A stretch of DNA of 18,442 nt from a virus (Duplodnaviria > Heunggongvirae > Uroviricota > Caudoviricetes): IMG/VR virus record IMGVR_UViG_2526164602_000012, one strand, 5' to 3'. The position numbers were made by a program. Of the stretch, positions 6,001-9,000 are shown one piece after another. Position 1 is the first letter of the stretch. Every line of letters begins with the position of its first letter.

Positions 6001-9000
6001 GCTGTCTGTTTCTTTTGCGGAAAGCCCGTTGAGCTTCTTCTCTTGTTTGCCAGTATTTTTCTCGCACTGGCTGAAATAGCAGTCTTCCAGTTTTTCGAAC
6101 ACTTCCCACGCCCGATCGGTTTCGAGCATTTTTGCGTGACGGGCTGCGCCGCGTTCTGTCCAGAGGATGAGGGAGCGAACGTTACGGGCGATTTTCACAG
6201 AAGGTCTTAAAGACATGCTGTGCTTAAATTCGCGCAACTCCTCATTCTCAAGTAAAAAGTAGTGCTTACCGATAACAAATCGTCCAGAATTCCGATTGAA
6301 ATTTTTTCGGATGTAATCTGGTTCTGTGCCATATAAGCTGGCAAGAAGCTCTGTAGTCACCACAGGTATATTACTAAATGAAATTATGGAGAGGGACTCC
6401 ACGGAGATGGTTTTCATGCTTTATGTCCTACTTGATATTTTGATTTACCCCTTTTGAGAGGGTGACCGGGCGCTCAAAACCGCAAGTAGTCGGCGGGCAT
6501 ATTCCCATTGCTGGTGTTGTATTAGCCGCACGCCCGGTCATAAACCAAGAAGACTGGACACAAAAAAACCGCATGTCTGTCGGGCGCGGTAACCGCTACT
6601 TGCTAAGGTGTTTTGAGCACCATGAGGCGGAATATATCCCCGTTAATGCAGCATTGTCAAACGATCTGTTCTTTAAAGACTTAACGAGAAGCCTTTTCGG
6701 GAATTTCGATCTGACAATCTTGAAATATCCTGTAGAGTACGGCGCATTTCTTCCGTCAGATGCTTGAAGGCGTTAAATTCGGCGACAGCTGCATCGACGT
6801 TATAGCCCTTGCTGTGTAGCTCGTTGAGGATGCGCATAGTTGGGCTTGGCATATCGAAGAGCACAGAAACGTCCAGGTTAAGAGTTTTTCGATCAACATA
6901 GCTCATCATGGAGTAGGGGTGATGCTCTGAAAACCACGAGAGAGGGTAGTTGATAGATAGTGTTGATTCTGGAAGCTGAAGTTGTTCTGGGATTTTTTGA
7001 CTGAAATAGCAGTCTTCCAGTTTTTCGAACACTTCCCACGCCCGATCGGTTTCGAGCATTTTTGCGTGACGGGCTGCGCCGCGTTCTGTCCAGAGGATGA
7101 GGGAGCGGGCTTTCGGGGAAATTTGTAACCCTCTTAAAGATGGTTGCAAATTTTGTGAGTTACTTAAAGTAACCCGCAAATTTTGTGAGTAGTTTAAAGC
7201 TACCCGCAATTCTTTAAGGTCATTACCAACAACTTTGAAAAAGTGTTTCCCTTCAACGAAGCGTACTTTGTTCTCATGATGATTCTGGCGAATACGCACC
7301 GGCTCAGTGCCGTAAAGCTGCGCCAAAAGTTCGGTGGTAATAACAGGAATCTGGTTATGGGTGATCGGGGAGAGAGTTTCAACAGAAATTTTAGTTGTCA
7401 TAATGACGCCCTCTGGTGGTTTCTTAATAACTCACCACCGACGACGCCAATCGTCTGGTGGTGAACTGTGCAGGGTTGGCGTAACCGGGAAACCGACCGG
7501 CGCGGATCTCTCCGCCCCCACACAGCCCACCATAATTCAGATGTGCGCGTGCATACGACAATAAAAAACACGCTCGCGGCGTGTATCTGTCGCGGTCTCT
7601 ATCCAGGACGCCAATCCCGACGCCAGATTTTGCTGGCGTTTGAGGAATATAGCCCCGAATAAATCATCACGTCAATCACCTTGTTTTCCTCGCACGATGT
7701 CTTAGCCACCGGATATCCCACAGGTGAGCCGTGTAATTGAAGGTTTTTACGTCAGATTCTTTTGGGATTGGCTTGCGTTTATTTCTGGAGCGTTTCGTTG
7801 GAAGGTATTTGCAGTTTTCGCAGATGATGTCGGTGATACTTCGTCGCTGTCGCCTCATGCAGCCCTCCTGACGCCCAGCCCGATCGCCATCAATGCCGCT
7901 TTGGATACGGTAGTAAACATCCGTCGAGGACTGATGAACGGTCGCCAAATCAGCAACATTGAGCCTTTGCTGTTTCCCTTCTTCTCCAGCCCTGTCGATG
8001 GTTCGATAAAATTAATCCGTCCATCAGTGATGATGCGAACTTCGTCAACACTCTCCAGAGCCTTGCTGAACCATCCGACAGACATATCCTCTGGCACAAG
8101 CATCACTACCGTCTGTCGCTGTTGTATGCACTGCTCAGCGGCTTTTTCCACCCACGGCCTGATATTGCTGTACGGTGGGTTATTCCAGATTGCACCGTGG
8201 CTTATCCACTCAGAATTTAGCGCGTCGTCAGCCTCAGTTAGCCAGTGAGTGCACAGAGCGTTTTTGTCGCTCGCAGCTGAATCCAGCCAGAATCCAAACT
8301 CAATATCCAGCGCAATACAAAAAAGCCAAGAGCGGCGTTTGCCAGCAGTCCTGTCGTGTGCTGGCGTATTTGATTTGATAGTCATGCAGCCTTCCCTTTT
8401 CGTTGTGACCATTCATACTCTCGCCGGGAGTCATCACTCCACCGCACGTTGCGCTCTGAGCCGAACCAGAACATGATTTCGATAAGCTCAGTCATGCTGG
8501 CCTTTCGCATTTTGCTGGTACGCACGCCAAGCATGACAACGCCACCGTCGATACCAGGCGCACTTCTTTGCTCCAGTTTTTTGGTCTTAAGCCACAGGGC
8601 AGTGAACAGGTCTTTCCAGTCTTCCGGCGCCAGCCGTTGACCATGCCATAGCACCTGACGCGAAACATCGTTCAGCATCGGCCACATGCGGTCATTCTGC
8701 GCTTTGCTGCGCCTGGGTTCTTTAACGTGGACTTCGTGGGGTGACTTGTCGTCGATGGGTAGTGAGAGAATGGCGTCTATGGCGTTATTTCTGATTGCTT
8801 CGTTGCGAAGCAGAAAGGTTTGCTTCATCTCCTGCTCTCCGGTTCCATTTTTCAGCCGCCGCAGCAACTGATGGTGCCCATGCCCCCCTGGCTTCACAGA
8901 GGTCACATTCTGCATAGCCCCACACATCAATATTTATTCCGGCCTCAACCCACAGACGAGCATTACCGCCGCAAAACGGACATTCTTTTAGCTTTGGCTG

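Follow-up and report, generated by a model that had tools for sequence, protein, structure and literature searches.

The antA and antB genes of this prophage carry the same 107-bp block, here called J, in the middle of otherwise diverged sequence. J is a joint at which a pool of modular genes recombines, because all four combinations of the N- and C-terminal parts that flank it exist as proteins (N_A-C_A, N_B-C_B, N_A-C_B and N_B-C_A, with parts up to 100% identical to those studied here) and because the J allele of this prophage is the commonest in the pool, occurring in at least nine N/C contexts. Very probably, J is a conserved inter-domain joint shared across a large pool of modular antirepressor-like genes of the ORF6N type, carried by lambdoid prophages of E. 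coli. The DNA that we analysed, a single stretch of 18,442 nucleotides referred to as the window, belongs to a Stx2c (Shiga-toxin) prophage of the phage 2851/Nil2 type, and the locus lies in its early regulatory region, between the replication genes and Q/stx. The antA-antB locus itself is already known and has been annotated since 2001; a full-text search, with Strauch et al. 2008 (phage 2851) outside its scope, found no paper analysing the 107-bp repeat.

The block shared by antA and antB

Comparison of the window with itself showed that the two copies of J are identical at exactly 107/107 bp, as an earlier note on this DNA had claimed, and that the match cannot be extended by even one base on either side. 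When mismatches were tolerated, the repeat lengthened to 127 nt (94% identity); with a single mismatch it was 110 nt long. The copies are in direct orientation with a spacing of 930 bp, and they form the only exact repeat of at least 16 nt in the 18.4-kb window; a chance origin of such a repeated 107-mer is effectively impossible. An assembly artefact was also rejected as the source, as the same tandem is found in Nil2, phage 2851 and Stx2_EH1904. Among complete E. coli genomes, the tandem antA-antB arrangement is present in 67 of 5,426.

Both copies encode the same 36-letter peptide, which bears out the claim that one block is shared by the two gene products. We predicted the structure of AntA in order to locate J and to test the fold of C_A, the C-terminal part of antA; the mean pLDDT was only 50.8, with values below 50 in the C domain. 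Taken from the equivalent antA residues 100-134 of this prediction, where pLDDT was moderate, J would encode the ORF6N domain's last strand and helices and, after them, a linker helix.

Table 1 Features of the antA-antB locus and its neighbour in the window.
Feature	Coordinates	Strand	Description
roi homologue	4940..5668	-	Rha-like N-terminal domain and KilAC/ANT domain; PF03374 at 2.4e-31, 108.7 bits
antB	5737..6417	-	226 aa; ORF6N N-terminal domain (N_B), J, P22 antirepressor C-terminal domain (C_B)
J copy in antB	6071..6177	-	gene nt 241-347; exact identity with 7001-7107
inter-J segment	6178..7000	-	823 bp: antA 3' part (C_A), spacer with antB leader, antB 5' part (N_B)
C4-like small RNA (Rfam sRNA-Xcc1) in antB leader	6456..6539	-	79.3 bits against a gathering score of 53
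promoter-like site of antB cassette	6631..6660	-	TTGACA-18-TATATT, 11/12 matches; just past the antA stop codon
antA	6673..7401	-	242 aa; ORF6N N-terminal domain (N_A), J, unrelated C-terminal domain (C_A)
J copy in antA	7001..7107	-	gene nt 295-401; exact identity with 6071-6177
30-bp tandem repeat inside N_A	7146..7209	-	2 copies here (2 x 10-aa insert); 3 in Nil2, 2851 and 1717
antA leader	7398..7675	-	Rfam matches; promoter and terminator scan; sequence
orf57 in antA leader	7398-7571	-	stop codon overlaps antA start as ATGA
C4 RNA in antA leader	7454-7537	-	Rfam 66.7 against 45
isrK in antA leader	7563-7639	-	Rfam 74.7 against 50
c4-a1b1 in antA leader	7600-7652	-	Rfam 45.9 against a gathering score of 46.7, just below
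promoter-like site in antA leader	7675-7646	-	promoter scan

Outside J the two genes are diverged, again in agreement with what had been proposed. Their N-terminal parts share ~65% DNA identity (59% protein identity over the alignable 131 aa, J included) and both match the ORF6N family PF10543 (cut-off 27.8 bits), antA at 6.7e-19 with 68.4 bits and antB at 2.9e-19 with 69.6 bits. The C-terminal parts gave no BLASTP match to each other. That of antB matches the P22 antirepressor family (PF10548 at 1.5e-23, 83.1 bits; cut-off 22.4); C_A has no Pfam match, PF10548 included. C_A gave one weak match to the SPC32H Ant protein (PDB 5D50_E, E = 0.004), a likeness of sequence alone. The gene names antA and antB are those of the Nil2 and 2851 annotation. 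The exact AntB protein occurs on at least 1,000 contigs; antA is assigned to PHROG 1760 'anti-repressor' and the exact AntA protein occurs on 445 contigs. Judged by domain homology and by work on related phages (Phi24B), both proteins are putative antirepressors.

The label 'Roi-like paralogs', which the earlier note had attached to the pair, turned out to be imprecise. Both antA and antB are ORF6N antirepressor-like genes and lack PF03374, by which we recognised the Roi/Rha-KilAC class; their link to Roi is only a distant one, through the shared PHROG profiles 63 and 4936. The gene annotated as roi in Nil2, VT2-Sakai and 2851 is a neighbour, the next gene downstream of the J pair and outside it.

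Each of the two genes also appears to come with its own control region (Table 1). We propose that the window prophage carries two complete cassettes in tandem, antA (N_A-J-C_A) and antB (N_B-J-C_B), each with a promoter-like site and a C4/IsrK-type leader RNA. For antA, the leader RNAs and the coupled small ORF make it, by sequence, a candidate c4/IsrK-controlled ant cassette. For antB, the Nil2 annotation places a promoter 'by homology' between the two genes.

A single-ant form that lacks 930 bp

Comparison of related prophages, the check that had been suggested for copy number, distinguished tandem loci (Nil2, 2851 and Stx2_EH1904) from loci with a single ant gene (YB14-1 and VT2-Sakai). What the single-ant phages are missing is a 930-bp unit, made up of the 823 bp between the J copies and one copy of J. 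The Stx2c prophage of YB14-1 (O157:H7), which is of the 1717 type, aligns collinearly with all of the window (99.2-99.9% identity); its ant region is 930 bp shorter, its single ant gene is N_A-J-C_B, and its J is identical to that of the window. On one side of this gene 0/1,277 bp are mismatched, and on the other there is one mismatch plus the 30-bp VNTR gap over ~1 kb. Alignment with VT2-Sakai likewise gave a clean 930-bp gap and the same N_A-J-C_B architecture, and the window minus 930 bp reproduces the VT2-Sakai ant region, the length of the predicted fused gene (294 + 107 + 334 = 735 bp) being that of the annotated VT2-Sakai ant. The VT2-Sakai J differs from that of the window at 5/107 positions, next to 471 bp of identical flank. 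A query made of the contiguous N_A-J-C_B junction was covered in 313 complete E. coli genomes, tandem genomes included, and single-form counts of this sort are approximate because two pieces of a tandem locus can be joined into full coverage.

The minimal homology for RecA or Red recombination is some tens of bp. The J pair has the full-length identity and the direct orientation of a deletion substrate, and a natural product with matching flanks was found as well. The suggestion that the pair is a substrate for deletion of 930 bp is thus upheld, its predicted product occurring naturally in the YB14-1 prophage and in the architecture of VT2-Sakai.

We propose that homologous recombination inside J, presumably by RecA or by phage functions (Red/NinB/NinG), would swap N and C modules cleanly, because J begins at a codon boundary in both antA and antB and lies where the N-terminal domain ends. 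If the two copies crossed over within one DNA molecule, a 930-bp piece with C_A, N_B and the promoter and small RNA of antB would be removed, and one in-frame chimera, N_A-J-C_B, would remain under the antA leader; the C4-like small RNA of the antB leader would be lost in this deletion form. This chimera is found as ant in Stx2c prophages of the 1717 type, and VT2-Sakai ant shares its architecture.

J alleles and module combinations in E. coli prophages

To look at J in other contexts, we scanned IMG/VR and found 135 J copies in 123 loci, representing 31 alleles; the allele of the window accounts for 32 of the copies. Mean pairwise identity among these loci was 0.96 in J versus 0.33-0.48 in the flanks, with sharp borders, where the conservation of coding positions 13-74 is by construction, as the loci were retrieved with a 62-nt degenerate J core, so that only positions 1-12 and 75-107 are unbiased and genes with a diverged J are left out. 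Genes of the reciprocal type, N_B-J-C_A (P0073), were found near int, in the early-left part of other prophages. An in-place triplication (antA, N_B-J-C_A, antB), which unequal crossover would give as its reciprocal product, was rejected because the N_B-J-C_A genes that we found have this different position.

Synonymous sites separate J from the rest of the N-terminal region. Between antA and antB, the same codon is used in 32/33 cases in J versus 9/35 at identical N-domain residues (Fisher p = 3.7e-10), and across 42 unique genes third-position identity was 0.94 in J versus 0.44 in the N domain (p = 3e-7). Because synonymous sites are identical in J and saturated in the N domain, the identity of J is recent and goes beyond what protein constraint alone would give. 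As in a gene-conversion tract, J is an island of identity that includes synonymous sites and has sharp borders with diverged homologous sequence.

Origin of the identity and of the tandem

The identity of the two blocks had been attributed to recent gene conversion. In a broad sense this stands, given the synonymous identity and the patch-like differences between loci described below; what is not required is conversion between the adjacent copies themselves, in which ancestral J blocks that differed slightly became identical when one overwrote the other in the 2851/Nil2 lineage. This narrower version is conceivable but somewhat doubtful. It would fit locus L003 of strain 2013C-3342, an independent tandem that likewise has its copies 930 bp apart and in which the J copies differ at 4 positions, whereas six window-type tandems elsewhere (L001, L048, L070, L080, L098 and L101) all have 0 differences between theirs. 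It would also fit the far higher synonymous-site identity of J than of the N domain, and the concentration of window-L003 differences in the two J blocks (3 and 4 differences in the two copies, only 2 in the 823 bp between them). J appears to be exchanged as a patch between otherwise near-identical loci. However, since the window allele is the commonest one and occurs with many other N/C modules, the identity needs no conversion between neighbours, and each gene could have come already carrying that allele. The L003 state is not the direct ancestor, because neither of its alleles equals that of the window. In L003, antB is also identical to a third paralogue over J and all of C_B, which points to a larger duplication, and we rejected conversion limited to J as its source. 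Conversion between adjacent copies is compatible with J as an inter-domain joint. A further possibility is that J is held constant because its nucleotide sequence is itself functional, whether through RNA structure, sRNA targeting or a regulatory site within the gene, which would agree with third codon positions far more conserved in J than in the N domain. We consider this very improbable: no Rfam family lies over J, the variation that does exist in J is mostly at third codon positions, as expected of coding sequence, and an RNA structure in particular was rejected, J being predicted to fold no more stably than shuffled sequences do (z = -0.17). Chi sites, as a possible recombination hotspot, were absent from the window.

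With regard to the order of events, we lean towards a change from tandem to single form. The sequence expected of the opposite course is identical: because both products share the J allele, insertion of N_B-J-C_A into a single ant gene, either Campbell-type or by double crossover, would give the same result. In this scenario, which we think rather unlikely, the tandem is derived, a 930-bp cassette (spacer, N_B, J and C_A) having recombined at J into a single N_A-J-C_B ant to give antA plus antB; it restates the Nil2 annotators' 'ant disrupted by an insertion' in terms of homologous recombination. Single-ant forms do outnumber tandems, N_B-J-C_A is intact elsewhere with the same leader and with homology to window 6067-6621 (98.7%) and 6673-7107 (96%), and contiguous C_A-spacer-N_B-J is found in two loci (L005 and L012). 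Such an insertion, however, requires either an intermediate in the form of a small circle or a donor in which the tandem was present beforehand, the second, diverged tandem lineage (L003) indicates that the tandem is not a one-off, and deletion between direct repeats of 107 bp takes one step, of a common kind. The Nil2 GenBank record (AJ413274) goes further and calls antA/antB 'ant of VT2-Sa disrupted by a putative bacterial retrotransposon', which would make the direct repeats on both sides of the insert a target-site duplication. A transposon of this kind is extremely improbable, as a 107-bp duplication far exceeds any target-site duplication and the 'insert' restores two complete in-frame genes. 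C_A, N_B and a 255-bp leader fill the whole 823 bp, and the repeat search reported no inverted repeats of at least 20 nt for that region. Of the non-ant ORFs of the insert, just one was compared with Pfam, the plus-strand ORF at 6462-6767, and it matched no family; the spacer has further ORFs, of 20-48 aa. The ORF scan and the inverted-repeat result together effectively refute a retrotransposon or IS origin of the 930-bp unit.

Discussion

The tandem and single forms differ in the effector domains and leader RNAs present, so that J would be a simple means of switching a single phage lineage from one regulatory configuration to another. Antirepressors of this class may affect how readily a prophage is induced and hence the release of toxin, by analogy with Phi24B, where knockout of ant reduced induction of the late promoter pR' to ~30% of wild type (Fogg et al. 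2011, PMC3064807); the Phi24B ant may itself belong to the N_A-J-C_B single-ant class. Tentatively, we hypothesize that J could be a maintained recombination 'linker' joining sensor-like ORF6N N-domains to varied antirepressor effector C-domains. If this is true, the repertoire of C-domains would include the P22-Ant type (C_B), possibly the SPC32H-Ant type (C_A), and others, continual exchange of patches between prophages resident in the same cell would keep the nucleotide sequence of J uniform, and tandem loci would be reservoirs that yield new chimeras by a single crossover. The locus documents well, and in a small space, how phage regulators come to be mosaic at the level of domains; it is a clear but ordinary instance of modular gene shuffling in phages, and the mechanism is not new.

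The closest known systems are Nil2 (AJ413274) and 2851 (FM180578), which have this very antA-antB locus, 99.7% identical to that of the window, with both genes and both 107-bp copies. They differ from the window in that antA has three copies of the 30-bp repeat instead of two, and phage 2851 in addition has IS629 in the antA-antB spacer; the retrotransposon insertion given as an explanation in the Nil2 record is unsupported by the sequence. The single ant of VT2-Sakai and 1717-type prophages has the N_A-J-C_B arrangement, the same leader and roi downstream, as predicted for the crossover product, but is one gene rather than two and lacks C_A, N_B and the second leader RNA.

The layout of the antA leader (isrK, c4-a1b1, C4 and the orf57-antA ATGA overlap) matches in sequence that of isrK-orf45-anrP in Gifsy-1, where the stop of a small upstream ORF also overlaps the ant start as ATGA (PMC4825925). 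Gifsy-1 and the c4-icd-ant modules of P1 immI are likened here to the context of J, i.e. the leaders, and not to J itself. For J, the comparison is with models of lambdoid linkers and domain shuffling: Botstein is said to have proposed in 1980 that lambdoid phages evolve in modules through conserved 'linker' homology, and Iyer, Koonin and Aravind reportedly described in 2002 domain shuffling in KilA-N/Bro-N/ORF6N/P22AR regulators. In these models, likewise, a short, highly conserved segment lies between unrelated or strongly diverged modules, and N and C domains occur in all combinations. J differs from the lambdoid linkers in its position, at a domain boundary within a gene where the linkers lie between genes, and, unlike them, it is present twice in one genome and hence would additionally drive local deletion.

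An exact repeat at the domain boundary of two antirepressor-like genes

The window comes from a Stx2c-type lambdoid prophage, of which it covers the early-right and nin region. Phages Nil2, 2851 and Stx2_EH1904 match it at 99.7-99.8% identity. Its gene order is ninB, dam-like methylase, ninE, antA, antB, roi, ninG, phosphatase, Q, three tRNAs and stx, with the genes discussed all on the minus strand. Used as a query, the 2.1-kb ant region had a 100% match in an O157:H7 chromosome. Both ant genes begin with an ORF6N domain (N_A, N_B) and end in different C-terminal domains (C_A, C_B). 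The "Roi-like" label that the earlier note gave them belongs to the wrong family, because the true roi homologue is the next gene; PHROG profiles shared by the roi and ant N-terminal domains indicate a distant relationship.

The perfect direct repeat described in that note was reproduced by comparing the window with itself. The two copies of this 107-bp block, J, align with zero mismatches and the bordering bases differ on each side; if one mismatch is tolerated the similarity extends to 110 nt, and at 94% identity to 127 nt. Given this length, and since the whole 18.4-kb window holds no other exact repeat of at least 16 nt, a chance origin is excluded. J starts at a codon boundary in both genes and encodes an identical peptide (36 letters). 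The remainder of the genes has diverged, as had been claimed, with ORF6N parts ~65% identical in DNA 5' of J and unrelated C-terminal domains 3' of it. An AlphaFold model of AntA, of modest confidence, maps J to residues 100-134, which form the final strand and helix of the N-terminal fold and the helix after it. The region of a 30-bp tandem repeat within antA has low pLDDT in this model; the window and VT2-Sakai each contain two units of the repeat, and Nil2, 2851, 1717 and YB14-1 contain three.

Because each ant gene has its own leader, the locus is two complete cassettes in tandem. The stop of orf57 (57 codons) overlaps the antA start as ATGA. The two leaders align weakly, which suggests separate control of antA and antB.

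Features of the window around the ant locus and at its margins
Feature	Position	Strand	Description
STnc100 sRNA	1012-1223	-	Rfam; downstream of stx
Three tRNA genes	2634-2874	-	Rfam; between Q and stx
roi homologue	4940-5668	-	Rha-like and KilAC domains; next to ant pair
antB	5737-6417	-	ORF6N and P22 antirepressor C-terminal domain (Pfam)
J, antB copy	6071-6177	-	107 bp
antB leader	6418-6672	-	11/12 promoter-like site, sRNA-Xcc1 (C4-like), 48-codon ORF
antA	6673-7401	-	ORF6N and C-terminal domain without Pfam match
C_A	6673-6993	-	C-terminal domain of antA
J, antA copy	7001-7107	-	107 bp
30-bp tandem repeat	7146-7209	-	10-aa units LRVALNYSQN / LRVTLSNSQN inserted in ORF6N domain of antA
antA leader	7398-7675	-	Promoter-like site, c4-a1b1 (Rfam, just below gathering score), isrK and C4 RNA (Rfam), orf57
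IS3-family element (IS629-like)	15858-17167	+	ORFs 15912-16238 and 16235-17125; ALIL frameshift pseudoknot 16193-16309
Lambda cIII thermoregulator	17787-17845	+	Rfam

A 930-bp-shorter form in related prophages

The earlier proposal that the J pair is a substrate for deletion is borne out by the predicted 930-bp-shorter product, which occurs in nature. The ant region, 2,101 bp long in the window, spans 1,171 bp in VT2-Sakai and in many phages of the Stx2a and Stx1a types. VT2-Sakai aligns to the window with one clean 930-bp gap, its edges at the J repeat, and its annotated 735-bp ant gene consists of N_A (294), J (107) and C_B (334). O157:H7 YB14-1 has a Stx2c prophage (1717 type) that runs collinear with the entire window at 99.2-99.9% identity. 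In the ant region the two differ by the 930-bp indel and a single 30-bp VNTR unit, and elsewhere by an IS629 and two other indels. Next to the junction, one flank of YB14-1 matches the window without a mismatch over 1,277 bp and the other has a single mismatch; the J sequences are identical. From these flanks and the identical J, we infer that a single recent recombination event at J separates the tandem form from the single form within one phage lineage.

The IS629-like element of the window is absent from the YB14-1 prophage; phage 2851 has an IS629 in the antA-antB spacer instead. A further indel between these near-identical prophages replaces 136 bp (window 9565-9700) with ~1.27 kb containing an HNH endonuclease gene (8789-10061 of the YB14-1 locus, L124).

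The tandem was present in 67 of 5,426 complete E. coli genomes. Synthetic junction queries were fully covered in 313 genomes (N_A-J-C_B) and 140 genomes (the reciprocal N_B-J-C_A), both counts including tandem genomes, whose two pieces the search tool joins.

J as an exchangeable patch in a pool of antirepressor-like genes

Protein searches returned thousands of ant homologues. Among the best 240, all four N/C pairings are represented (N_A or N_B, C_A or C_B), their parts matching those of the window at up to 100% identity, and the same C domains are also joined to further N-domain variants. The reciprocal chimera N_B-J-C_A (P0073, 78 contigs) is found in other prophages, where it has an antB-type leader and lies close to int, in the early-left region; in two fetched loci (L005 and L012) a Rha-N/C_A gene is followed by the same spacer as in the window and then by N_B-J-C_A. 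In LC616031 and relatives (H150-H157) and in E. coli O121 (H95), C_B-J and N_A are ~571 bp apart, neither adjacent nor separated by 930 bp, possibly a third kind of ant tandem.

When IMG/VR was scanned with a degenerate 62-nt pattern from the core of J, 108 loci were returned; with other fetched loci these held 135 full J copies in 31 alleles, most within five substitutions of the window's allele. That allele is the commonest (32 copies, in at least nine different N/C combinations). Across J the mean pairwise identity was 0.96, and it dropped sharply at the borders to 0.33-0.48 in the flanks. The search pattern constrained coding positions 13-74; positions 1-12 and 75-107 lay outside it and were conserved equally.

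This identity exceeds protein constraint. Between antA and antB, identical residues use the same codon at 9/35 positions in the N domain and at 32/33 in J (Fisher p = 3.7e-10), and at the conserved residues of 42 unique genes third-position identity rises from 0.44 in the N domain to 0.94 in J outside the search pattern (p = 3e-7). An RNA-structure explanation was unsupported (z = -0.17), and the window contains no Chi site.

In sequence comparisons J behaves as an exchangeable patch: between VT2-Sakai and the window, 5/107 positions of J differ and the adjacent 471 bp are identical. An independent tandem with the same 930-bp spacing (L003, strain 2013C-3342) has three and four differences from the window in its two J copies and only two in the 823 bp between them; its copies differ from each other at four positions, and those within the window and six other window-type tandems are identical. 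L003 (1638-4919) also has a different N_A allele, a third ant paralogue and a truncated roi copy. Identity of this paralogue to antB from J through the stop codon indicates a further unequal duplication in L003.

Mechanism and direction of the rearrangement

The evidence best supports J as a conserved recombination joint between domains. Its presence twice in one genome makes the locus a substrate for in-frame deletion, which would fuse N_A to C_B with loss of C_A, N_B and the second leader. We somewhat favour derivation of the single form from the tandem by this deletion as the single-step route; the tandem may instead be the derived state, formed when an N_B-J-C_A cassette inserted into the single form by homologous recombination. 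A GenBank note describes ant as "disrupted by a putative bacterial retrotransposon", a reading that is not supported because the 930-bp insert consists of gene halves and a leader, the flanking duplication is 107 bp, Pfam finds no transposase or reverse transcriptase, with the plus-strand ORF at 6462-6767 covered, and no terminal repeats (inverted, at least 20 nt) were reported for the insert.

The earlier note also invoked recent gene conversion. That recent recombination or conversion, in some form, kept or made both J copies identical is supported in a broad sense by an identity beyond protein constraint. Conversion may have occurred between these two copies themselves, or each ant gene may have arrived already carrying the common J allele. 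Apart from this point and the gene name, the mechanism in that note was largely right.

Inferred function and comparison with known systems

Textbook accounts of modular phage genes include direct repeats shared by paralogues, homologous deletion between them and the shuffling of domains at a conserved linker, and the J finding is an ordinary case. The ant locus was already published in the genomes of phages Nil2 (2001-era accession AJ413274) and 2851 (2008) and is also present in dozens of complete genomes. Full-text searches, which did not reach the 2851 genome paper, found no literature analysing the J joint specifically.

By sequence, C_B is assigned as a P22-Ant-type domain. C_A has no Pfam family and one weak sequence match, which is the small antirepressor encoded by Salmonella phage SPC32H (PDB 5D50_E, E = 0.004, 67/86 residues), a hint that the antirepressor effector domains of antA and antB differ in kind. 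A knockout of Phi24B ant, which has a P22-like C-terminus and may be the same chimera, lowered late-promoter induction to ~30% of wild type, and the study mentions comparable findings for phage 2851 (PMC3064807); by domain homology and this analogy AntA and AntB are putative antirepressors. Both ant leaders resemble the P1 immI / Gifsy-1 IsrK type, and the layout of the antA leader matches Gifsy-1 isrK-orf45-anrP as described (PMC4825925).
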